The notes beneath the pieces were generated by a model that saw only the letters and a list, made by a program, of their open reading frames with translations, did not search any database and was not told where the DNA came from. DNA of 48,644 nucleotides from the NCBI RefSeq assembly GCF_016903815.1, contig NZ_CP069971.1. One strand, written 5' to 3'. Of the stretch, positions 4,561-42,959 are shown in pieces. A program made the position numbers and the translations under genes. The DNA is from Escherichia coli. GTDB lineage: Bacteria > Pseudomonadota > Gammaproteobacteria > Enterobacterales > Enterobacteriaceae. Each line of letters begins with the position of its first letter. The stretch's first letter is position 1.

Positions 4561-4585
4561 AAGCGGGCTAACGCCCGCTTATATG
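4561..4585 (+). terminator. intrinsic terminator hairpin
   Basis: AAGCGGGC-TAAC-GCCCGCTT followed by a T-rich stretch. Confidence 0.5.
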
Positions 4586-4589
4586 ATTA

Positions 4590-4683
4590 TAGATTTATAT
4601 AATTATATAAAACGCTTTTCATCCGCCAAAAAGTTGGTTATGCTTACCTCGTTCTATAAATATAGATTTATAGAATTATATAA
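4590..4683. repeat. two AT-rich composite sites (ATAGATTTATA + TATAATTATATAA) upstream of parA; candidate centromere/operator
   Basis: 4590-4610 ...tagatttatataattatataa and 4661-4683 tatagatttatagaattatataa. Confidence 0.5.
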
Positions 4684-4706
4684 CCAAACACATGGAGTCT
4701 CGACAA

Positions 4707-5360
4707 ATGACTATCTCTGTAGGTATTTTCAACGGAAAAGGCGGCGTAACCAAATCAACAATTGCCCGTGCTTTAGCAGTTGCTTATGCAAAGGCTGGCT
4801 GGAATGTATGCCTGATCGATATGGATGTGCTTAACGGAACGGTAACGCGTTGGGTACAACGCAGAATGGCCAACAATATCGAACCAGCAATCGCGGCGCA
4901 GCCGTGCGGCACACCATCACAAGTCCAGAAAATCATCGAATCAGAAGTATACGACCTGGTTATCGTCGATGGCGGTGCCTACGCATCTGAATCAGTACCG
5001 AAGCTCTCTGAATTTCTGGATATGGTTATTTTGCCAACCAGATTCTCTACCGATGACCTGGAAACCACCGTTAACACAGCTCACGGCATCGTTAAAAAGG
5101 GTGTACCAATCAAGAAAATTTGCATGGTGTTTTCCGGCGCGGCTGAAAACGAAGCTGACTATATTGAAGCCCAAGAGTACCTGGCTAATACGCCATACTT
5201 TGTTGTCGATAAGTACATTCCCCACAAGCCAGCTCTGAGCAAAGCTCAGGATAAGGGCTTAAGCCTTATTGAGTGCTCATACGTTGCGCCACGCAAAAAG
5301 GCAGACGATGTTATCCAGGGGATTATCAATCAGCTTGAGGCTCTGACTACTGCCGCGTAA
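4707..5360 (+). CDS. parA: ParA-family partition ATPase (deviant Walker A)
   Basis: MTISVGIFNGKGGVTKSTIA...CLIDMD; GGAG RBS about 10 nt upstream of the ATG at 4707 (the ORF track starts at an upstream in-frame ATG, 4692). Confidence 0.8.
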   Translation: MTISVGIFNGKGGVTKSTIARALAVAYAKAGWNVCLIDMDVLNGTVTRWVQRRMANNIEPAIAAQPCGTPSQVQKIIESEVYDLVIVDGGAYASESVPKLSEFLDMVILPTRFSTDDLETTVNTAHGIVKKGVPIKKICMVFSGAAENEADYIEAQEYLANTPYFVVDKYIPHKPALSKAQDKGLSLIECSYVAPRKKADDVIQGIINQLEALTTAA

Positions 5361-5391
5361 TATATAATTATAGTTTTATAGATTTATATAA
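5361..5391. repeat. AT-rich palindromic site between parA and the ParG-like gene
   Basis: tatataattatag ttt tatagatttatataa, the same motif family as at 4590-4683. Confidence 0.45.
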
Positions 5392-5403
5392 AAGGGGATA
5401 CAC

Positions 5404-5652
5404 ATGGCCGCACCATCAAAACCACCGAAAAAGAACAGCAAAGGCGTACCGCCATCAATCGAACAACCGCAGGTTTTCGACCCGACTGAAACGCCGACCA
5501 GAACCAAATCAGGTGGGGCACAAATGGCGTTTAACGTCGACCCTGAATTTAAACGCGAGTACAAAACGTTCGCCAGCTCAATGGATATGTCATTGAAAGA
5601 AGTGCTGACAAAATCTTTTGAGTTACTCAAGGCTCAATACAACCAGAAGTAA
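5404..5652 (+). CDS. small partition/centromere-binding protein, ParG-like (predicted ribbon-helix-helix)
   Basis: 82 aa; flexible basic N-terminus and C-terminal MAFNVDPEFKREYKTFASSMDMSLKEVL, RHH-like; immediately downstream of parA. Confidence 0.55.
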   Translation: MAAPSKPPKKNSKGVPPSIEQPQVFDPTETPTRTKSGGAQMAFNVDPEFKREYKTFASSMDMSLKEVLTKSFELLKAQYNQK

Positions 5653-5874: not shown

Positions 5875-5900
5875 AAAAAAGGCCCCCGAAGGGGCCTAAT
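5875..5900 (-). terminator. intrinsic terminator (GGCCCC-CGAA-GGGGCC, T-run on minus strand)
   Basis: Perfect GC hairpin flanked by an A6 run on the plus strand, i.e. T6 on the minus strand; lies between convergent genes. Confidence 0.65.
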
Positions 5901-5902
5901 CG

Positions 5903-6022
5903 CTACTTGCTGCTAATGTTTATCGTCACATTCAGAGCGTTATCAGTAATCTTCCAACCCTCCCCATGTGGCGTAAACAAAGCTCCAGTAACAACGATAA
6001 AAATACACATACAGTATTTTTT
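5903..6022 (-). CDS. small hydrophobic peptide (about 40 aa), function unknown
   Basis: MKKYCMCIFIVVTGALFTPHGEGWKITDNALNVTINISSK with an AGGG RBS, ending at the terminator hairpin. Confidence 0.3.
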   Translation of the reverse strand, partial: KKYCMCIFIVVTGALFTPHGEGWKITDNALNVTINISSK

Positions 6023-6423
6023 CATTGTATGGCCCTTACAGGCCGTTTCACGGCATCCCCACCGACGAAAACAACGCGAGAGCAAGCACGGCTGCTTGTG
6101 CTTGCATGTACGGCAACGGAGAATCCTCCCCTAAAGTCGGTGCCCGGGTGCGAATCGGCGGGAAGGTCCACAGGTATTTTACGATTATTTTAAGATTAGT
6201 TATAGGAAAGAAATTAAACGAAAAAACTCGTTTATTTTCACAAAATCAGTAACCTACCCACAATCTGTGAGTTTGCAGGCACAACAAGAACCACAATTTT
6301 ATGAAGCATAATAGTGGACTATTATTACCTTTTGGGTAAAATTAACTTGCTGCTTGTGCTTGCGTGGTTGTTTATACAACAACGTAATGCTGAAAGGACC
6401 GCGAATCCGATCAGCACGAAAGA

Positions 6424-6449
6424 ACCGTCCTCAATAGGGCGGTTTTTTT
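6424..6449 (+). terminator. intrinsic terminator/attenuator in the antirepressor leader
   Basis: ACCGTCCT-CAAT-AGGGCGGT followed by T7. Confidence 0.6.
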
Positions 6450-6468
6450 GTTTCTGCCTACCAATAAA

Positions 6469-6483
6469 CCCACACTATGTGGT
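6469..6483. promoter_or_regulatory. operator-like site CCCACACTATGTGGT (ACCAC-N5-GTGGT family)
   Basis: One mismatch to the operator consensus seen between the CI-like and Cro-like genes. Confidence 0.5.
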
Positions 6484-6593
6484 TGTCTCTGTTAAAATCC
6501 CGCCGTATTGACATAAATGCGCCATTGGTGGACACTTTCCTAGCCGTAGCAAAATCTACGGTCGGGATTGGAACCCCGTAGACACAATGGCGC

Positions 6594-6616
6594 ATACCGC
6601 GTTAGCGGTTTTTTTA
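6594..6616 (+). terminator. second terminator-like hairpin in the antirepressor leader
   Basis: ACCGC-GTTA-GCGGT followed by T7. Confidence 0.45.
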
Positions 6617-6781
6617 TGCGTAAAGCACTGCTACACCCAAATTATGGTGGGGCGTGCGGGGGAGTCGTAAGACTCGCCGGTTCGTCATTGTGTCCGGTAG
6701 TTCCAACCCTGCACGTCTCACCACCCAATGATTGGAACCTGACGGTGGTGAGTATCCTTAACCTTTAAGGGAATCATCACA

Positions 6782-6973
6782 ATGACAAACCTACCCCATG
6801 ACTATTACGTCAACCTCGTAAAGATCCTTCTCAAGAAAGCCTCATACGCCGATAAATTCCGCCTGGCTGAAATAATCGAGCGCGAAGCTATGCGCATCGC
6901 CAGCAACGATAACGCTGTTTCTGTCGCAAAAATCTCCCTCGTAACCAAAGTAGTTATGGGAGGTGCAAAATGA
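6782..6973 (+). CDS. small protein translationally coupled to the antirepressor gene
   Basis: 63 aa; its stop overlaps the ATG of the next gene (ATGA overlap at 6970). Confidence 0.45.
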   Translation: MTNLPHDYYVNLVKILLKKASYADKFRLAEIIEREAMRIASNDNAVSVAKISLVTKVVMGGAK

Positions 6974-8151
6974 AAACGCTTCCGACCGTTAACACCCTAC
7001 AGCCTATCCTGCATAACCAGATCCCCGTTATCACTACTGAACTACTGGCGCAATTGTATGGAACCGAGCGCCAACGTCTGACGAACAATTTCAATAGAAA
7101 CAAGGAACGTTTTATAGAAGGTAAACACTTTTTTAGGATAGAAGGTAAAGAGTTACGAGAGTTGAAGAACAAAAACTCTTTAAGAGTTCCTGTGAGAGTA
7201 GTTAACGAACCATCTTTAAGAGGGTTACAAATTCCCCCGAAAGTTCGCTCCCTCATCCTCTGGACAGAACGCGGGGCTGCACGTCACGCCAAAATGCTTG
7301 AAACTAACCAAGCGTGGGATGTGTTCGAACGGCTGGAAGACTGCTATTTCAGCCAGAACGCGCAAACGGCCGCGACCGTAACCGTCTCGCCAAGCAATGC
7401 TCGTGAGGTTGTTGATACGCTCAACGCCAAACCAATGTATTACGTTAAGGTGTGCAATAACGAGCCACTCACAACCTCAGCCGATGTTGCCCAGGCATTC
7501 AGCACCACAAACAATTCCATCGTTATGGCCATCGATGCGTTACGCATTCCTCGCACAGCTGCGGCGCGTCATTTCTTTAAAGAGCAACGACCGTTGGAAG
7601 GAAGCGACCGCGAAATAACAATCTATCGCATGACAAAAGACGGATTTACCTTGCTCATGGAAAGTATCGACGGTCCAAGCGTGAAGGATATCAAGCTGGC
7701 CTACATTGAAGCTTTTAACGCTATCAGCAGCGTGTTAAAGGCAGAATACGAGCGAATACTATACAACCGACTGTATCAGGAAACAAAGATTATCCGAACG
7801 GCAACAGAACATCATCGGCTATTAACGGAACCAAACTACCGCAAGACACTAATCAAAGAGTTTGACAAAGCGACGGAGAAAACTAAAGCGGCACTAAATC
7901 TACCAACAATGACTAAGGATGATGTGATATCAGCCTTACTTCTTGATCTACTCAGAAACGCCAGAGCACTTATAAGCTTTGACGAAAACCTGAATCCTCA
8001 GCTCAAGCTACTACCACCGACAGGCAAAGTAGTCGACCAGGCTGATCACAACAGCATACTCAGCGTTCTGGATGCAAACCTGCCAGCCAGGACACTACAG
8101 GAACTGATAAAAATATCTGCGGATAAACTGGCCGCAGGTGCAAAACCATAA
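6970..8151 (+). CDS. antirepressor-like protein (ORF6N/KilA-type N-terminal domain)
   Basis: 393 aa; N-terminal ...NNFNRNKERFIEGKHFFRIEGKELRELK...LILWTERGAARHAKMLETNQAWDVFERLEDCYF matches the ORF6N-type antirepressor pattern as I recall it. Confidence 0.6.
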   Translation: MKTLPTVNTLQPILHNQIPVITTELLAQLYGTERQRLTNNFNRNKERFIEGKHFFRIEGKELRELKNKNSLRVPVRVVNEPSLRGLQIPPKVRSLILWTERGAARHAKMLETNQAWDVFERLEDCYFSQNAQTAATVTVSPSNAREVVDTLNAKPMYYVKVCNNEPLTTSADVAQAFSTTNNSIVMAIDALRIPRTAAARHFFKEQRPLEGSDREITIYRMTKDGFTLLMESIDGPSVKDIKLAYIEAFNAISSVLKAEYERILYNRLYQETKIIRTATEHHRLLTEPNYRKTLIKEFDKATEKTKAALNLPTMTKDDVISALLLDLLRNARALISFDENLNPQLKLLPPTGKVVDQADHNSILSVLDANLPARTLQELIKISADKLAAGAKP

Positions 8152-33707: not shown

Positions 33708-35564
33708 CTATATGGTTACGCCTTTACTTATAACTCTACGGCGTCTTCTACGTATACCTGACGAGTTCTGCACATACACATTACCTCGCATTTCCTGTTC
33801 GGCAAGCCAGTTAAAATTAGGGTTCAGAATTTCCATCGCGGCAGTTGCATAGTTACGGCAATCAAGAGGCTCGTTACGCTCGTAGACTTTCACCCACTTT
33901 TCTTTTGTCTGCCCATTTTTATATTCAAATATTTTTTTCTCTGATAATAATCCTTTAAAGTATTCGGTATCATATCCTCTGTCAGAATCTAATGGGAAAT
34001 GCATATAACCAGGACCAGGATCATGTAGTTTAATTCTTGCCATGATGGTCCCTTTACCATCATCAACCCCCAAATTAAACAACATAGCACCCACACGGTT
34101 ATTATTACTTGGCTTTCCTATAAATGGTAAACCTACCCCACCACGCCCCCTGATAGAGTATATTCGCCTTGATTCTCTCGGCTTAGTAAAGCGATATACC
34201 TCTGTCGTAAAATGCCCACCAGAGTCAATACAAACGGAAGAAATCTGTAATTTTCGACCGTCACGGAATGACCAGCTACGGAGTAAGTATTCATCAAGTT
34301 GTTTCCAGACAACATCTTGTGCGGGATCACCTGGGAATATTTTATATTCTATCCCCCATGACTCCTTACCTTTTCCCCAACCGACCAATTCACAAACTAA
34401 ATACGTGTCCTGTACGTCAACACCAGCACTTAACAATAAAACATCATCTGGTAAAAACTCTTCAAACCTTATTCTGCGTTGCAACAAGTATTCAGGATCG
34501 ATATCGTCTTTAGCATCCTCTTTCCATGGCTCACCCAGCTTAAGGTTAATAAACTCCATTAATCCATTTTTATCGCGGTTTCTGGTTGCTTCCGTAAATT
34601 CTTCAACCAGCTCTGACAATGCAACCCACGGGGAGTAAAGACTGTTAATATGAAAACCAACAATACCTTTAACTCCAGTATGTTCAGCTATCCATACCCC
34701 CTTCGCCAACCAATCAACGTCTGGTTTACCAGATCCGCGCATAATCCCGCCGCACTCACAGCACTCATATCTGGCCGTTTCCGGTAACGCCTCACCTGAA
34801 TCGCTCTTATCCCATCTGACTTGCGACCATTTCATCACCTGCATGGTGCCACAACATGGGCAAGGAACATGGTAGTAACGCTGATCGGAGAGCTTAAACC
34901 ACTTGTGGATTTTGCTCGTTTCCTCCAAAACAGGAGTAGAAACAAAAACTTTCTTACGATTATGAAAGTTGGTAGTACGCTGAATACCTAGTTTTAGTGG
35001 GTCGCCCTCCTGCGTCACACCGTAACGATCAATCTCATCAGCTAACAGTATTCGAATTGGCCTGGATGCAAGACCTGCTGGGGAATTAGCACCAACAAGT
35101 GCTATATATCCACCAGCGTAATGCTTCATACGTATAGTCGTGCTGGACTTTTTGGCTGCACCGCGCCCCTCTTTCCCTTCATGCAGCTTGTGTTTCAAAC
35201 CAGGGGAATATTTGAACGTCGGATCAATACGCTCCTTTGAAAAAGCCTCAGCCGCCTCTACCGTTGGATAAATCATCAACTGAGGAGATGGCTCCTGATC
35301 TGCAAAGTAACCCATAACATTTAGCTGTAATTCGGATTTACCAATTTGTGAGCTACATTGCATCACTACTGTTTCTGTATCAGCGTCACCAATAACATCC
35401 ATTGGTTCACGTAAATATGGCACTCGGCTTGTACGCCACGGCCCTGGCTCTGGAGACGTTCCCGGCGCTACATGACGATACTTATCAGCCCATTCGGAAA
35501 CAGTTAGCCGTGATTTAGGGCGAAGCGCACGGAAAAAAGCGGTGCTCCATACTGTTTCGCCCAT
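33708..35564 (-). CDS. terminase large subunit (lambda gpA-like)
   Basis: 618 aa; ...YHVPCPCCGTMQVMKW...RYECCECGG... Cys cluster and overall size. Confidence 0.85.
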   Translation of the reverse strand: MGETVWSTAFFRALRPKSRLTVSEWADKYRHVAPGTSPEPGPWRTSRVPYLREPMDVIGDADTETVVMQCSSQIGKSELQLNVMGYFADQEPSPQLMIYPTVEAAEAFSKERIDPTFKYSPGLKHKLHEGKEGRGAAKKSSTTIRMKHYAGGYIALVGANSPAGLASRPIRILLADEIDRYGVTQEGDPLKLGIQRTTNFHNRKKVFVSTPVLEETSKIHKWFKLSDQRYYHVPCPCCGTMQVMKWSQVRWDKSDSGEALPETARYECCECGGIMRGSGKPDVDWLAKGVWIAEHTGVKGIVGFHINSLYSPWVALSELVEEFTEATRNRDKNGLMEFINLKLGEPWKEDAKDDIDPEYLLQRRIRFEEFLPDDVLLLSAGVDVQDTYLVCELVGWGKGKESWGIEYKIFPGDPAQDVVWKQLDEYLLRSWSFRDGRKLQISSVCIDSGGHFTTEVYRFTKPRESRRIYSIRGRGGVGLPFIGKPSNNNRVGAMLFNLGVDDGKGTIMARIKLHDPGPGYMHFPLDSDRGYDTEYFKGLLSEKKIFEYKNGQTKEKWVKVYERNEPLDCRNYATAAMEILNPNFNWLAEQEMRGNVYVQNSSGIRRRRRRVISKGVTI

Positions 35565-35569
35565 GAGGT

Positions 35570-36121
35570 TTATTCTTCCTGCTTAATAAATCGGGATTCC
35601 TGGAGCGCCTGAAGCGCAAAATTAATCTCGTCTTCAATAATGCGTTCGATCTCCCTGGCTGTTTTGCCTTCACAACGGGGAGCTGCTCTTGGAGCAATAC
35701 TAAATAAGCGGCTACGCAATTCATTAGCTGCCAGAAATGCATCATCCCTGACCGCATCTTTAGCGATGAGAGAGCCTTCCTTTTCTTCAAATTCAAGGCG
35801 TTTCAGCTTTGCCTGATAAATTTTTTCTGCGGTCTTAGCCTTGTTGAATTGCACCGCAACACCGGAAGTACCACCAGCTAATCCGGCATCATCAGCGGGT
35901 AACTCTGGTTGTTCCGAAGATATCCCATGCCCTCTTTTTCCATTTTCAGCAGATACCTCACGACCAACCTGTCGGCTCGCTTCATAAGCCGCACTGGCTT
36001 TATCAAAATCCAGCTTGCCGCTTTTCAGCACTGGAATGCGACCGGAACGACAGAGCTTCGTAACCATTGCCGGAGAAATACCTTTCCGGCGGGCAAACTC
36101 TGACTTACTGACGATGGCCAT
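35570..36121 (-). CDS. terminase small subunit (Nu1-like)
   Basis: MAIVSKSEFARRKGISPAMVTKLCRSGRIPVL... HTH N-terminus; ATG overlaps the upstream gene stop (TAATG). Confidence 0.7.
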   Translation of the reverse strand: MAIVSKSEFARRKGISPAMVTKLCRSGRIPVLKSGKLDFDKASAAYEASRQVGREVSAENGKRGHGISSEQPELPADDAGLAGGTSGVAVQFNKAKTAEKIYQAKLKRLEFEEKEGSLIAKDAVRDDAFLAANELRSRLFSIAPRAAPRCEGKTAREIERIIEDEINFALQALQESRFIKQEE

Positions 36122-36711
36122 TACTTGCAACCATTGGCAAGATACTGAACAAATCCCTCATGCGTTTCATGCGCGTCGTGGTACTGACGATAAACATCCA
36201 GCAACAATGCAATTTCCATATCCGTCGCGGGAATACGTTCTTTATCAATAGCCAGGTACTTAATTTGAACAACAGGGGAAGAATTATCGTCTTCTTCCTG
36301 CGGCTGTTCATCGCTTAACATTTCGTCAAGCTCTGCATCATTAAACCCAAGCAGATCAATATCAAAATCATCATCCATTAACTCTTTGACTTCTTCGGCC
36401 AGAAGCTGCATATCCCAGCCAGCATTTAAGGCCAGCTTGTTATCTGCAATCCTGTACGCCTTCTTCTGTTTTTCAGAAAGGTTACTCAACCGAATCGCCG
36501 GAACTTTATCCATTTCCAGAATTTCGGCTGCTGCAAGCCGCCCATGCCCCGCAATCAGTTCATTCTTTTCATCGATCAGCACAGGATTAGTGAAACCGAA
36601 CTCACGGATACTGTTCACCAACTGTTCAACTTGCTCATCTGAATGAGTCCGTGAATTTTTGGCATATCTGAGCAGCTTACCGACTGGTAAATATTCGATT
36701 TTTAGAGCCAT
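36121..36711 (-). CDS. ParB-like N-terminal domain (ParB/Srx fold) protein
   Basis: 196 aa; ...LIDEKNELIAGHGRLAAAEIL...; paralog of 39378-40001. Confidence 0.7.
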   Translation of the reverse strand: MALKIEYLPVGKLLRYAKNSRTHSDEQVEQLVNSIREFGFTNPVLIDEKNELIAGHGRLAAAEILEMDKVPAIRLSNLSEKQKKAYRIADNKLALNAGWDMQLLAEEVKELMDDDFDIDLLGFNDAELDEMLSDEQPQEEDDNSSPVVQIKYLAIDKERIPATDMEIALLLDVYRQYHDAHETHEGFVQYLANGCK

Positions 36712-37268
36712 TTTTTAACCGCCATAACACAACAGGTTAAAGAAAACTGTTTAACTTATTGATACTAAAAGAGAAAAATGACGATCTTTTTACTCATAAA
36801 AAATCACACAAACCAGCATAATCATCTGATTTTATTAAGTTTTTATAAGTAAAAAGGATCTTGCGATGGTTTTTTGGTTAAAAGATTGGATGTATTTGCA
36901 TGATTTATAACGATTTTTATCAGAACAACATCACATTGGTTAAAGATCTGCGCGTATCTTGATGATCTAAAAGAAAATTTTCTACTTTCTTTTTACCAGC
37001 ACAAGCACAGCAAAAAATCACGTTTTCCCAATATTTTTCAATGAGATGAGTAAATTTCTTTTACCGCAACTTTTAACCTAACTTTTTTCACGTTTAGCTA
37101 GCCGAACATCGGGGTTCGAATGACCCGCATCCAACGCTTTTGTCCAGAAGGACCCAATTCTGCCGGACGATGAAACGATGCTCGTGCACCCCCACAGACA
37201 GCCAGCGAGCGACGCTACAGAACACAGTGAATACACTCTGCATAACAACACCATCAACCACACGATGA
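36712..37268. other. AT-rich non-coding region with clustered GATC sites; candidate cos/packaging and late-promoter region
   Basis: About 550 bp without a credible ORF, upstream of the terminase operon. Confidence 0.35.
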
Positions 37269-37988
37269 TTAACGAGAGAAGGTCTTGGAAAGAATGTCAT
37301 CAATAGCCTTTGTGACTTCATCAGCAAACGCATCCTCACCAGCACGCAGCGCCACGCCATGCCAATCAAGACGCTGCGAATAGTTAGGTTGCTGGATAAA
37401 CGTAAGGATCAACGTAGGACGCCGCCCAACGCGCTGCCAGACGCCTGGTTGAAGCGGGTTACTTGTACCAGGTCGAACAACAAAAAACTCCGTAGGCTTG
37501 CCCTGACGGCGATTTTGATGCGCATCTCGCTGAACTCTTAGGCCAGATAAGACCTGCTGTAATTGCCCCCGCGAAATATTCCCGTATTTGTCCAGCTTTG
37601 CGCCGGGACCAGGAGCAATCTGCCAGCCGTTAGGCAAATATCCACCAGCCCTTAGCGCCCCTTCTGAGCGTTTGTACTGTCGTTGGCCACCTTCGATTTG
37701 CGGAGTCAACGTTACAGGGGCTGGCGTTCCTCCCCATTCACGAGCATACACAATGGCTGTAGGATCACTCTTCTTTGCGGCCAAAACGTAAGTAGAGTTC
37801 TGAATCCACGGCGTGGGCCTGTCAAATACCCGATTAATTTCATTCTTAATCGCAGCCTGAGAAGCCTTTGCCGTTCTGGTTGCCGCAAGCGCCATTGCGA
37901 ACGGCAATTCGCGTTCTTCAAGGCGCTGGAGTTGTCGTTGAATATCCTGAGAAGAAAAATCCATCTTTATCTCAATTCTGTCAGCCAC
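37269..37988 (-). CDS. hypothetical protein (239 aa)
   Basis: ORF downstream of the ParB-methyltransferase fusion gene. Confidence 0.5.
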   Translation of the reverse strand: MADRIEIKMDFSSQDIQRQLQRLEERELPFAMALAATRTAKASQAAIKNEINRVFDRPTPWIQNSTYVLAAKKSDPTAIVYAREWGGTPAPVTLTPQIEGGQRQYKRSEGALRAGGYLPNGWQIAPGPGAKLDKYGNISRGQLQQVLSGLRVQRDAHQNRRQGKPTEFFVVRPGTSNPLQPGVWQRVGRRPTLILTFIQQPNYSQRLDWHGVALRAGEDAFADEVTKAIDDILSKTFSR

Positions 37989-38004: not shown

Positions 38005-39384
38005 CTACTTAATCAACGGCCGGAAAGCCGCCAGCACATCATCAGATCGTCCGATTGTTGAACCACCAGGCAACGGCAACTCAAACTCAAAACGAACAGC
38101 TTTCTCCAGACTCGCCCAACTAAGGGAATCATCGTTAATGACGTGCAAATACCAGCTCTTACAGTTGAATATTGACCGCTTAATCCTGAAACCATGTACA
38201 CGACACAACTGCTTCACTTCCTCATCAGAGTGAAACTTCTGGTAAAACCAGTGCCCCTTCCGGTACAACGCGGTAAAACCGTCATGATCAATAAAATAAA
38301 GCCGGCTTTTGGAACTCGCCGCTTGTGTTTGCTTCAGGACTGTTTCCAGTTCTCCACGGCTACGGCCAGAAAAGAATATTGACCCACCAGCTTTACACAG
38401 GCCTTTCAGAACCGTCAGAACGGACCATTCAGCCTCGACACTATCGACCGAGTTCAAAACGCTATCGCAAATCACGTAGTCGTAACGCCCTCGCGTTTTT
38501 AAGTCGTCCACCAGCGTATCAATCATCCGGTTTGTTGCGGCCCTATCCAGAGTGTTTCCAGCGCCCTTACGGCGGAAAAGCTCGAGATCATGCAGGTTAT
38601 ATCCCTTTGCCCTGAGCATTCGCGCGTAGTCTCCCTGCCCCGAACCAAAATCAATTCCTCTTGGCGTCTTGGCAATGATCGGGAGGATCAACGACTCATA
38701 CAGATTTGATTTCAGGCTGCCACCATTACGCAACCGCATAAGCTGCGCATACGTCTGGATGTATGTTGTTTTCTCCAGATGAGAATACTCAAATACACCA
38801 TAAGTTTTATTCAGATAACTTTGGTATTTTTCCTTCTCAACATCAGGGATCACAAACACCGTTAGCGGTGTGCGCGTCATTTTCGCTGCTAATGCATACT
38901 GAGCACAGTGAATAACCTCACCAGACTGAGTAGCAACACAACCACCCCACGGACCATACTTGATAACCAGTTCCGCTATGTTCTTTCGAACATATGCCAT
39001 TTTCGCGCGCATATTGCCTGAGATCTGGCTTGCCGATACCTGAACAAAACCATGCTTATCTTCCAGACCGGACACCCTGCAACGCTCATCTCCGCTATCA
39101 AAATCCGTTCCGTTATGCAGTTGGTTAAACCGTACTTCGTCGTATACCGTCGTTTCACAGGGCAACACATACACCGCAGCACGCGTTATTCCCAACTTAC
39201 GTAGCGCCTTCGTCCTTTGGTGTCCCGCCACCAGCAAATCGCCGCGCACTATCAATGGCTTCACAAGCCCCAGCTCCCTGACGCTTTCCGCCAGCCTCGC
39301 AAGATCATCCTCACCGATAAAACGCGGGTTATATTCCGCGCCGCGTAGGTGCGTTATGTCGTAATTGAGGTGAAGCATCAGCAC
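38005..39384 (-). CDS. fusion protein: ParB-like N-terminal domain + class-I SAM-dependent methyltransferase-like C-terminal domain
   Basis: N-terminal ...LIVRGDLLVAGHQRTKALRKLG...; C-terminal GIDFGSGQGDYARML, DYVICDSVL, LCKAGGSIFFSG motifs; no DPPY/NPPY motif seen. Confidence 0.65.
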   Translation of the reverse strand: MLMLHLNYDITHLRGAEYNPRFIGEDDLARLAESVRELGLVKPLIVRGDLLVAGHQRTKALRKLGITRAAVYVLPCETTVYDEVRFNQLHNGTDFDSGDERCRVSGLEDKHGFVQVSASQISGNMRAKMAYVRKNIAELVIKYGPWGGCVATQSGEVIHCAQYALAAKMTRTPLTVFVIPDVEKEKYQSYLNKTYGVFEYSHLEKTTYIQTYAQLMRLRNGGSLKSNLYESLILPIIAKTPRGIDFGSGQGDYARMLRAKGYNLHDLELFRRKGAGNTLDRAATNRMIDTLVDDLKTRGRYDYVICDSVLNSVDSVEAEWSVLTVLKGLCKAGGSIFFSGRSRGELETVLKQTQAASSKSRLYFIDHDGFTALYRKGHWFYQKFHSDEEVKQLCRVHGFRIKRSIFNCKSWYLHVINDDSLSWASLEKAVRFEFELPLPGGSTIGRSDDVLAAFRPLIK

Positions 39385-40001
39385 ACCTCCCCAGCCAGCA
39401 ATGCGGATACAAATCCGATATAGCTGCCATTATCATCAACATAACGAGACACCGCGCAGTCAAAACGATCCGCTTCCTCATCCGTTGCCGGGATTTTATG
39501 ACCTCCAAATGACAGGTACTGAACTTTTACGCCTGATTTGGCCTCATCCTTCTCAAATGGGATATCCATACCCTCTGTGTCATCGTAGACTGCCGCACTC
39601 AATAAGTTATCCAGTTCGCGCTGAGTAAAACCAATTGAGTCCAGAGCAAAATCATCGGCCGCAAGATCTGCAAGCTCCGCGCTTAACAACTCTTCATCCC
39701 AACCAGCATTCAGCGGAATACGGTTGTCGGCCAGACGATATGCCTTCTTCTGATTCTCCGTTAGCCCAGCCAGAACAATGCAGGGAACATCATCCATCCC
39801 CAACTGAGTGGCCGCAGCAATTCGACCATGACCAGCAATTACAACGTTGTTCTCGTCTATCAGGATCGGATTAGTCCATCCGTACTCCTGTATGCTGGCA
39901 ACAATCTGATCTACCTGCTCCACGGAGTGTGTGCGAGCGTTCTTTTCATAACCAATCAACACAGAAAGTGGTAAAGAAACCACATTAAGATGTTTTGTCA
40001 T
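39378..40001 (-). CDS. ParB-like N-terminal domain protein (paralog)
   Basis: 207 aa; aligns by eye with 36121-36711 over most of its length. Confidence 0.7.
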   Translation of the reverse strand: MTKHLNVVSLPLSVLIGYEKNARTHSVEQVDQIVASIQEYGWTNPILIDENNVVIAGHGRIAAATQLGMDDVPCIVLAGLTENQKKAYRLADNRIPLNAGWDEELLSAELADLAADDFALDSIGFTQRELDNLLSAAVYDDTEGMDIPFEKDEAKSGVKVQYLSFGGHKIPATDEEADRFDCAVSRYVDDNGSYIGFVSALLAGEVC

Positions 40002-41987: not shown

Positions 41988-42575
41988 CTATGCCACTTGC
42001 CAGAGAGCATCATGCAACTGGATACCTCCATTGCACTGGTTGCCCCAGCCATGCCAACCATCAGGTAAATCACCGCGAGCAAACAGCTCAATACGAGGAA
42101 CATCACCTAACAGCCTTACCAGCTTGTCACGAACCACATCAGGCTTCCGAGAATGCTCCAGACGAGGCGATGTAAACGACTGAATGATCCCCGCATCAAG
42201 GCGGGTCGGCAATTTGCCTTTTACCGCAAACAAGCAATCTTCACTGTTTGCACGAGTCATATGCCCCATCCCCATCACCAGCTTATCTGGTTGTCGGCTA
42301 CCACATTTGTTCCATGTGAAGCCCTTCATGGTCATAAGCCTGAATCCCCATGCTTTCACCACCAGCAACGCTTCTTCTGGCTGAGTCGGAACCCACCACA
42401 TGGCCAACAAACACGATTCAGGATTAGCAAGCTGCCAGACAGGAATACGAGCAATATCCTCAGCTTTCATCGTTGGATACTTAAAACCAGCTCCACGATT
42501 CCCATCCTTACACTTATCTTTGTATTCCCAGGGGGGATCTGCATAAATCAGATTAAACAATGCAATTGCCTCCAT
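41988..42575 (-). CDS. MT-A70-family DNA N6-adenine methyltransferase
   Basis: 195 aa; LIYADPPWEY and ...SRKPDVVRDKL... motifs. Confidence 0.75.
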   Translation of the reverse strand: MEAIALFNLIYADPPWEYKDKCKDGNRGAGFKYPTMKAEDIARIPVWQLANPESCLLAMWWVPTQPEEALLVVKAWGFRLMTMKGFTWNKCGSRQPDKLVMGMGHMTRANSEDCLFAVKGKLPTRLDAGIIQSFTSPRLEHSRKPDVVRDKLVRLLGDVPRIELFARGDLPDGWHGWGNQCNGGIQLHDALWQVA

Positions 42576-42883: not shown

Positions 42884-42959
42884 TGGTGGCCCCTACCGGA
42901 TTTGAACCGATGACCGTGCGATTATGAGTCGCCTGCTCTAACCACTGAGCTAAGGGGCC
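42884..42959 (-). tRNA. tRNA with CAU anticodon (Met or Ile2-type)
   Basis: 76 nt; GGCCCCTTAGCTCAGTGGTTAGAGCAGGCGACTCATAATCGCACGGTCATCGGTTCAAATCCGGTAGGGGCCACCA; cloverleaf folds by eye, encoded CCA end. Confidence 0.8.

Follow-up and report, generated by a model that had tools for sequence, protein, structure and literature searches.

A ParB-fold protein encoded between cos and the terminase genes of an Escherichia coli phage-plasmid, a candidate packaging-stage adaptor

What is a ParB-fold protein doing at the head of a phage packaging operon? The locus that raises this question lies in a 48,644-nucleotide stretch of Escherichia coli DNA (contig NZ_CP069971.1 of assembly GCF_016903815.1; hereafter the window, ~48.6 kb), which is a phage-plasmid with its late genes on the minus strand, as given by the RefSeq annotation of the plasmid of strain ATCC 25922 and confirmed on the window itself. 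The first gene after the probable cohesive-end site (cos), about 400 bp on from it, encodes a 196-amino-acid protein, here called ParB1, and is followed directly by the gene for the terminase small subunit, TerS. We tentatively propose, with a probability of roughly 0.35, that ParB1 is a nucleotide-gated dimeric adaptor that acts at the packaging stage and that its client in this lineage is the terminase. An earlier note on this DNA, made from its letters alone, had suggested two roles for the protein, partner in packaging or contributor to DNA modification, and these are the two live hypotheses. The features at the centre of the question are the following.

36121-36711, minus strand: ParB1, 196 amino acids, ATG start, ParB/Srx fold without a DNA-binding domain (open reading frame (ORF) list, Pfam, PHROG, AlphaFold2, Foldseek)
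36119-36123, minus strand: TAATG stop/start overlap of ParB1 and TerS, read from the sequence (CATTA on the plus strand)
35570-36121, minus strand: terminase small subunit TerS, 183 amino acids, basic helix-turn-helix (HTH)-like N-terminal segment (PHROG 57, E 1.4e-41; isoelectric point (pI) 9.1)
33708-35564, minus strand: terminase large subunit TerL, GpA type, 618 amino acids (ORF and RefSeq annotation; the homologue in locus L057 has GpA_ATPase and GpA_nuclease)
37114-37125, minus strand: probable cohesive end of 12 nt (cosN core), GGTCATTCGAAC on the minus strand (two Yersinia phage records, conservation)
36712-37113, minus strand: spacer between cosN and ParB1, ~400 bp, ~30% G+C, AT-rich, with repeats (composition, repeats, partial conservation)

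The stop codon of ParB1 (TAA, 36123-36121) and the start codon of TerS (ATG, 36121-36119) have one base in common, as the earlier note had it, and inspection of the 20 nt upstream of the TerS ATG found no GGAG, GAGG or AGGA. This lack of a Shine-Dalgarno-type string makes translational coupling of the two genes plausible. ParB1 also heads the packaging operon, as described there: a TerS of PHROG 57, for which Pfam returns weak HTH matches only, is followed by the GpA-type TerL, a DUF6148 gene, a lambda-type portal gene, the gene for a ClpP-like protease, and decoration and capsid genes. The overlap and the missing Shine-Dalgarno sequence could together mean that the ParB1 reading frame is mainly a translational leader, which brings ribosomes to the TerS start and whose protein product is dispensable. 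We hold this to be very improbable, given that purifying selection acts on ParB1 at the amino acid level (in cassette-less relatives, a nonsynonymous rate dN of 0.09-0.13 and a saturated synonymous rate dS, for a dN/dS of ~0.04 against the L008 orthologue) and that fold-critical and pocket residues are invariant across homologues of 41-59% identity. TerS and p239, the gene on the other side of cos, are under comparable selection.

ParB1 is a ParB/Srx-fold protein, a reading of the bare sequence that is borne out by Pfam, whose only match is ParB_N (residues 15-86, E 6e-8), by a full-length match to PHROG 620, 'ParB-like partition protein' (E 4.6e-75), and by Foldseek, in which the N-terminal domain matches the nucleotide-binding domains of Noc, PadC, ParB and KorB. 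The protein is laid out as a nucleotide-binding domain (residues 1-98), an acidic helical segment (99-133), a disordered acidic linker (134-150) and a C-terminal beta-hairpin with two helices (151-192). In agreement with this, the AlphaFold2 model (mean predicted local distance difference test score, pLDDT, 81) places the ParB/Srx domain at 1-95, helices at 101-113, 118-121 and 125-132, disorder at 137-147 (pLDDT <50) and a confident C-terminal domain at 151-192, which probably dimerises. Many phage proteins of ~200 amino acids align along their whole length. Residues 2-147 also match PHROG 498, 'DNA methyltransferase' (E 3.9e-52), and no methyltransferase domain is found in ParB1 by Pfam or in the AlphaFold2 model; the chain stops at residue 196, after a small unrelated domain.

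Alignment to solved ParB and Noc structures shows that the phosphate- and base-contact positions are retained (R21, S34, G39, R58 and N91), and that the residues involved in hydrolysis are substituted, glutamine by N19 and the glutamate of GERR by H56, so that the boxes read N-S-R for QPR and GHGR for GERR. Within the ParB1 subfamily, N19, R21, H23, H56, G57, R58, D90 and N91 are invariant, and these align to the QPR, GERR and EN boxes. The protein is very acidic, with a pI of 4.5 and a net charge of -19, of which -18 falls in residues 99-150; by contrast, TerS, TerL, p239 and the ParB_N-Methyltransf_23 protein encoded upstream are basic. With this charge and no DNA-binding domain, ParB1 is unlikely to be the DNA-binding partner of terminase that had been suggested.

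The ParB/Noc/KorB clamps, which depend on cytidine triphosphate (CTP), thus share with ParB1 the N-terminal fold and the arginine and asparagine positions that bind phosphate. One reading to consider is that ParB1 is simply a conventional partition ParB, acting at a parS site in the segregation of the prophage-plasmid. The element does live as a plasmid: of 5,426 complete E. coli genomes, 73, that of ATCC 25922 among them, hold a circular plasmid of ~48 kb with 99-100% identity to the 4.6 kb around ParB1, and plasmids account for 79 of the 82 E. coli places matched. Database entries moreover name ParB1 'chromosome (plasmid) partitioning protein'. We nevertheless give this identity next to no chance and reject it. 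Pfam finds no HTH in ParB1, and three short acidic helices occupy the HTH position in the AlphaFold2 model; the NCBIfam partition model TIGR00180 reaches 40.1 bits, short of its 58.45 cut-off, and covers profile positions 22-98 only; the ParA-binding motif [LFI]G[KR]G[LFI] (as defined in PMC12704722) is absent from the sequence, the nearest string being VGKLL. The GHGR box in place of GERR, the asparagine in place of glutamine and the net charge of -19 set ParB1 further apart from the clamps. Finally, ParB1 is a late-operon gene 31 kb away from parA and on the opposite strand, and the ParA gene belongs to a separate partition locus (4692-5652) with a downstream partner of its own:

4692-5360, plus strand: ParA-family gene
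5404-5652: ORF of 82 amino acids after ParA (PHROG 6024, function not annotated), probably the centromere-binding partner of ParA

ParB1 is therefore not the partition protein of the plasmid, and the conventional plasmid ParB that the earlier note had contemplated as the contrary outcome is not what was found.

What precedes ParB1 is informative in its own right, since the same note had placed a putative cos and late-promoter region there. The first of these assignments gains support. The record of Yersinia phage vB_YpM_39 starts with GGTCATTCGAACCCCG, which is the window sequence from 37125 reading downward, and that of vB_YpM_44 ends with GGTCATTCGAAC and starts with CCCGATG. The opening points of the circle in records OR545053 and OR545055 thus differ by 12 nt (window positions 37125/37126 and 37113/37114), an offset that is the expected product of a 12-nt cohesive end at 37114-37125. 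In addition, the GGGTCATTCGAACCC block around cos is invariant in six relatives, one of them with a ParB1 of only 59% identity. Taken together, these comparisons make 37114-37125 a probable 12-nt cohesive end. The late promoter fared less well: a search of the spacer between cos and ParB1 gave no sigma-70-like promoter, and the two matches inside the ParB1 coding sequence are fewer than expected by chance. An Rfam scan gave no match in the spacer either. Repeats of the GGTWAAAAGA type cluster there in both orientations (five of the 11 matches in the window), and the spacer looks like a cosB-like candidate region to which TerS might bind.

On the other side of cos, the window carries one conserved gene and a cassette of variable occurrence:

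37269-37988: p239 (PHROG 1924, 'minor tail protein'), basic
38005-39378, minus strand: ParB_N-Methyltransf_23 fusion, ~457 amino acids, next gene after ParB2 (Pfam; PHROG 5475)
39378-40001, minus strand: ParB2, 207 amino acids, same architecture as ParB1 (48% identity over the full length, E 5e-62)
41988-42575, minus strand: MT-A70 family methyltransferase, 195 amino acids, in the variable slot upstream of cos (PHROG 359, E 1e-102; RefSeq name)

The gene p239 is always the last before cos. Its product gave no Pfam or PDB match and is probably structural: a homologue of 27% identity is flanked by ORFs of capsid and sheath size and lies downstream of a portal remnant. We considered p239 as a DNA-modifying client of ParB1 and rejected it on the lack of Pfam and PDB matches, the PHROG 1924 label and the head-tail context of that homologue. 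In the RefSeq plasmid NZ_CP044178 it is named 'glycosyltransferase family 1 protein', a name that none of the analyses run here supports.

In ~23 loci with protein identities of 76-100%, the same series (p239, cos, ParB1, TerS, TerL, portal) recurs, and no more than four or five of these loci also carry the cassette of ParB2, methyltransferase and MT-A70. In the cassette-less relatives, the 5 kb upstream hold an endolysin gene, a spanin gene and one or two unrelated ORFs, followed by p239, and their ParB1 proteins retain every pocket residue. That ParB1 stays intact and constrained where the cassette is absent indicates that its function is independent of the cassette. The paralogy with ParB2 proposed in the earlier note is real, and the ParB2 gene likewise overlaps its downstream neighbour by one nucleotide (TGATG, the TGA stop running into the next ATG). 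The homology extends over the full length, including the C-terminal domain; the differences are that the next gene after ParB2 is a methyltransferase gene and that after ParB1 is TerS, that ParB1 falls in a clade of its own, and that it is retained without the cassette. Joint action of the two paralogues in DNA modification, as had been proposed, is accordingly disfavoured, ParB2 being the dedicated partner of the ParB_N-Methyltransf_23 protein within a cassette that is gained and lost.

The history of the two genes can be followed in 15 homologues that share the C-terminal domain (alignment A2). Outside the ParB1 clade, all those of known context lie directly upstream of a ParB_N-Methyltransf_23 gene (four intact, one truncated), while the TerS-adjacent sequences form, in a neighbour-joining tree drawn without bootstrap, one clade of three (the window protein, P0123 at 59% identity and P0125 at 52%) nested within the methyltransferase-partner family. 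The P0123 contig mirrors the window, with a ParB2-like gene, a methyltransferase gene, p239, a gap, a ParB1-like gene and two ORFs in the TerS and TerL positions; in the P0125 contig, just 105 bp precede the ParB gene, and TerS, a GpA-type TerL and the portal gene come after it. The simplest history that these sequences suggest is a single duplication of a methyltransferase-partner ParB, one copy of which may have settled between cos and TerS. Locus L024 had appeared to offer a natural swap of TerS beside an unchanged ParB1; we rejected it, its apparent 48% identity being due to frameshifts in the contig.

We favour the terminase as the client of ParB1 because ParB1 belongs to the packaging backbone, is kept in the absence of the methyltransferases, and forms with other TerS-adjacent copies a clade separate from the methyltransferase partners; the adjacency of ParB and TerS also in the lineages at 59% and 52% identity supports this choice. 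In the mechanism we propose, ParB1 would be a non-catalytic, nucleotide-gated dimer acting during DNA maturation and packaging, which would bind a basic DNA-handling partner and help it to act on duplex DNA. The best-fitting partner in this lineage would be the terminase, with TerS, co-translated with ParB1, and TerL assembling on the repeat-rich region between cosN and ParB1. Helping DNA-modifying enzymes appears to be the ancestral role of the subfamily and might persist alongside. What the analysis shows directly is the gene itself, its fold and domain layout, the lack of partition-ParB features, the place after cos, the conserved gene order, the widespread association with terminase genes and the purifying selection; nucleotide binding, dimerisation, contact with TerS and an effect on packaging are our inferences.

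Several observations weigh against a terminase client. GpA-type terminases, for example that of lambda, are not known to need a ParB-like protein. A distant relative (p239 of 41% identity) has p239, an ORF of 177 amino acids, a GpA-like TerL and a portal gene and no ParB gene, which indicates that ParB1 is no universal need of a GpA-type terminase and that any role in packaging would be an accessory one. About half of the junctions in the late operon show stop/start overlaps of 1, 4 or 8 nt; such overlaps are thus ordinary here, and the one between ParB1 and TerS is weak evidence of partnership. The closest relatives of the nucleotide-binding module are all fused or adjacent to DNA-modifying enzymes, and the absence of such enzymes from the cassette-less relatives was judged on the interval between the lysis genes and p239 only. 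Finally, our search of the literature found no experiment linking a ParB-fold protein to terminase or packaging.

How ParB modules are deployed elsewhere bears on both hypotheses. The diversity described here comes from a search of cluster representatives with ParB1 and from viral loci, the initial homologue search having returned near-identical sequences only. The representative search yielded 35,735 clusters at E 1e-3 or better: the nucleotide-binding module of ParB1 has 43-60% identity to thousands of phage proteins, and residues 1-140 have 50-60% identity to many proteins of 170-590 amino acids. A scan of viral contigs gave 49 loci, 25 of them diverged (29-59% identity). Three arrangements recur among the diverged loci, namely fusion of the module to a DNA methyltransferase (nine loci, each of PHROG 498), a stand-alone gene followed by a Mom-like, DpdA-like (PHROG 6059), glycosyltransferase-like (PHROG 842) or methyltransferase gene, and a stand-alone gene with TerS immediately next (L052). 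TerS or TerL lies at most three genes downstream of the ParB-module gene and on the same strand in 18 of the 21 diverged loci long enough to assess. The terminases involved are varied, with at least five TerL families (PHROGs 2, 9, 38 and 3717 and the GpA type) and TerS families of PHROGs 57, 83, 309 and 1889. That non-homologous TerS families stand beside ParB modules argues against a ParB-TerS contact conserved across phages, and so counts with the adverse points above. Records of cultured phages often have the homologue in first or second place or within a few kb of their end.

This neighbourhood is known. Terminase-adjacent ParB-fold genes were noted by comparative genomics in 2013, when Iyer, Zhang, Burroughs and Aravind (Nucleic Acids Research) named the 'ParB-terminase large subunit (ParB-Tls) locus', as both PMC4738411 and PMC8256090 cite; the same two sources carry the prediction from Aravind's group that modification is coupled to packaging by ParB, a prediction in keeping with a packaging-stage adaptor. 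The arrangement of ParB1 is the published one, common rather than unusual: in ParB-Tls loci, too, a co-oriented ParB-fold gene lies just upstream of the terminase genes of tailed phages. The difference is that modifying genes there lie between or beside ParB and terminase, whereas none lies between them in the window and the methyltransferases are upstream, across cos. The domain class has likewise been surveyed, and similar genes are routinely annotated ('ParB-like nuclease domain protein').

Against this background, the other live hypothesis takes ParB1 to be a helper, in trans, of a DNA-modifying enzyme (the ParB_N-Methyltransf_23 protein, the MT-A70 enzyme or one from the host) that modifies progeny DNA before it is packaged, the adjacency to TerS reflecting timing. 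We regard this as the main rival, somewhat less likely than a terminase client. One argument for it, which is also a precedent for the adaptor mechanism proposed above, is ParB176, a phage ParB associated with 5mYOX and the only experimentally tested protein with the architecture of ParB1, which activates a neighbouring thymine dioxygenase, its cognate enzyme, specifically on double-stranded DNA (O'Toole et al., PNAS 2026; PMC13229309). Its activity requires both terminal domains, the nucleotide-binding one and the C-terminal one, and was not abolished by mutation of the putative nucleotide-binding residues N14, R16, S29 and R56 (PMC13229309). ParB176 and ParB1 share a nucleotide-binding domain, short helices, a disordered linker, a C-terminal domain and the lack of a DNA-binding domain, as well as phage neighbourhoods with terminase genes; N14/R16/S29/R56 match the pattern of N19/R21/S34/R58 in ParB1, a comparison of residue patterns made from the description of ParB176. 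The two differ in the length of the linker (~50 amino acids in ParB176, ~17 in ParB1) and in that ParB176 adjoins its cognate enzyme, whereas ParB1 adjoins TerS and the window holds no dioxygenase. The ParBs of the tested class are, moreover, fairly specific to their cognate enzymes (PMC13229309), which speaks against a helper with borrowed clients.

The fusions point in the direction of a modifying enzyme too. Residues 2-147 of ParB1 correspond to the N-terminal module of the ParB-methyltransferase fusions of PHROG 498 (B. cereus Bce_0392 among such fusions), many of which have 43-60% identity to it; identity to the diverged viral relatives, including the nine confirmed fusions, is 43-59%, and fusions also occur directly upstream of TerS. 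The differences are that ParB1 has no methyltransferase domain and has instead the acidic linker and a separate C-terminal domain of 45 amino acids. Downstream of the stand-alone relatives lie Mom-like, DpdA-like, glycosyltransferase-like or methyltransferase genes, with TerS next after these, and relatives with the same C-terminal domain precede ParB_N-Methyltransf_23 genes. The MT-A70 enzyme is a second candidate client in trans: the N-terminal part of PHROG 21315 (415 positions) matches ParB1 and its C-terminal part the MT-A70 protein of the window, from which it follows that ParB-MT-A70 fusions exist. Both candidate clients are on the strand of ParB1 and less than 6 kb away, 1.3-5.9 kb upstream across cos. 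Alongside ParB1 in viral contigs, however, MT-A70 occurs only together with the ParB2 cassette (best 80 of 562 matches), and ParB1 is intact and strongly constrained in at least 15 contigs with neither a methyltransferase nor ParB2 between the lysis genes and p239. The position of dedicated methyltransferase partner is already taken by ParB2, and the two paralogues stand side by side in two lineages only 59% identical, which implies different jobs. The MT-A70 protein itself aligns to PHROG 359 at positions 121-305 of 329, and does not have the N-terminal third of typical members.

Some ParB-fold proteins have been credited with activities of their own, and ParB1 could be a self-sufficient nickase or nucleoside triphosphatase (NTPase), or a factor in conflicts (anti-defence, superinfection exclusion or damage to host DNA), housed in an accessory hotspot beside the terminase. 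In PMC3592412 and PMC5512222, which cite the original reports, non-specific nicking of DNA is ascribed to the B. cereus ParB-methylase, the only fusion for which nicking is reported there, and ATPase and DNase activity to Osa. A survey of the fold describes phage fusions to N6/N4 methyltransferase and Methyltransf_23 domains and members that bind CTP, adenosine triphosphate (ATP) or guanosine triphosphate (GTP), orphan phage ParB folds among them, and suggests an anti-defence role for these orphans (PMC12704722). In ParB1, two positions of the CTPase boxes are taken instead by the invariant H23 and H56. At 490-774 of L055, the relative of 59% identity, an Acb2/Tad1 hairpin-domain gene (anti-CBASS/Thoeris sponge family) directly precedes the ParB2-like gene of the paralogous cassette, which indicates that the slot before the terminase also gathers anti-defence genes. 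Such a role for ParB1 itself is unlikely: ParB1 sits in the conserved backbone and not in the variable slot, it is very acidic with no recognisable DNA-binding surface, no nuclease motif can be defined for the ParB/Srx fold, and the function of ParB176 survived the mutations in its nucleotide-binding residues mentioned above.

To return to the terminase as client, it is tempting to speculate that ParB1 and TerS could form a split ParB. TerS would supply site-specific DNA binding at cosB in trans, and ParB1 nucleotide-gated engagement of its N-terminal domains and dimerisation through its C-terminal domain, so that the two might load and clamp at cos as ParB does at parS, or as KorB holds KorA; the ParB-terminase loci of other phages would recruit modifying enzymes to the same clamp. 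This is a long shot. A small accessory gene that lies beside cos and terminase has a positional analogue. HNH endonucleases of the HK97 gp74 type reportedly work with HK97-type terminases, a role said to have been demonstrated by Kala et al. in 2014. The order of gp74-type genes beside cos and terminase is noted in PMC3592412; their fold is unrelated to that of ParB1, and for ParB1 the role of terminase helper is a proposal only.

Should ParB1 serve the terminase, accessory factors for packaging would gain a new class and the nucleotide switch of ParB a new use; otherwise its description amounts to routine annotation. Either way, an inducible E. coli phage-plasmid that is also present in the reference strain ATCC 25922, and that carries two paralogues in two contexts, one before a methyltransferase gene and one before TerS, together with natural relatives that have no cassette, is a convenient test bed.

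Some observations on the cassette and on the rest of the element complete the picture. The pair of a stand-alone ParB gene and a ParB_N-Methyltransf_23 gene joined by a TGATG overlap is a widespread two-gene cassette (38005-40001 in the window; also L058, L060, L063 and L064). Its methyltransferase has the GxGxG S-adenosylmethionine motif, and a DPPY-type motif is absent from it. In non-enteric phages, including those of marine metagenomes, the cassette is followed by a third conserved gene, absent from the window, for a cysteine-rich protein of 142-160 amino acids with the motifs HCA+CL, YLCGVS and TCRNFQFG.

The near-identical relatives of the element include Escherichia phage vB_EcoM-613R2 and three Yersinia phages of ~49 kb, and Salmonella plasmids are relatives of the whole element at ~80% identity. 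On the ATCC 25922 plasmid, RefSeq annotates an IncFII-like RepA, a ParA family protein followed by the 82-amino-acid ORF, a toxin-antitoxin pair and a repressor, together with lysis genes, contractile-tail genes and lambda-like head genes. Four copies of TTATATAA lie at 4579-4610, directly upstream of the ParA-family gene. Further along, Rfam gives matches above the gathering score to ryfA (5875-6171, minus strand), isrK (6543-6615, plus strand) and the C4 antisense RNA (6640-6728, plus strand), and directly downstream of this cluster is a gene with an ORF6N domain (6970-8151); the ensemble of 5875-6728 and the ORF6N gene looks like an antisense-RNA and antirepressor immunity module of the P1/P7 type. 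Finally, a tRNA with anticodon CAT at 42884-42959 is called tRNA-Met in the Yersinia phage record and by ARAGORN and tRNA-Ile in the RefSeq plasmid, and may be of the Ile2 (lysidine) type.

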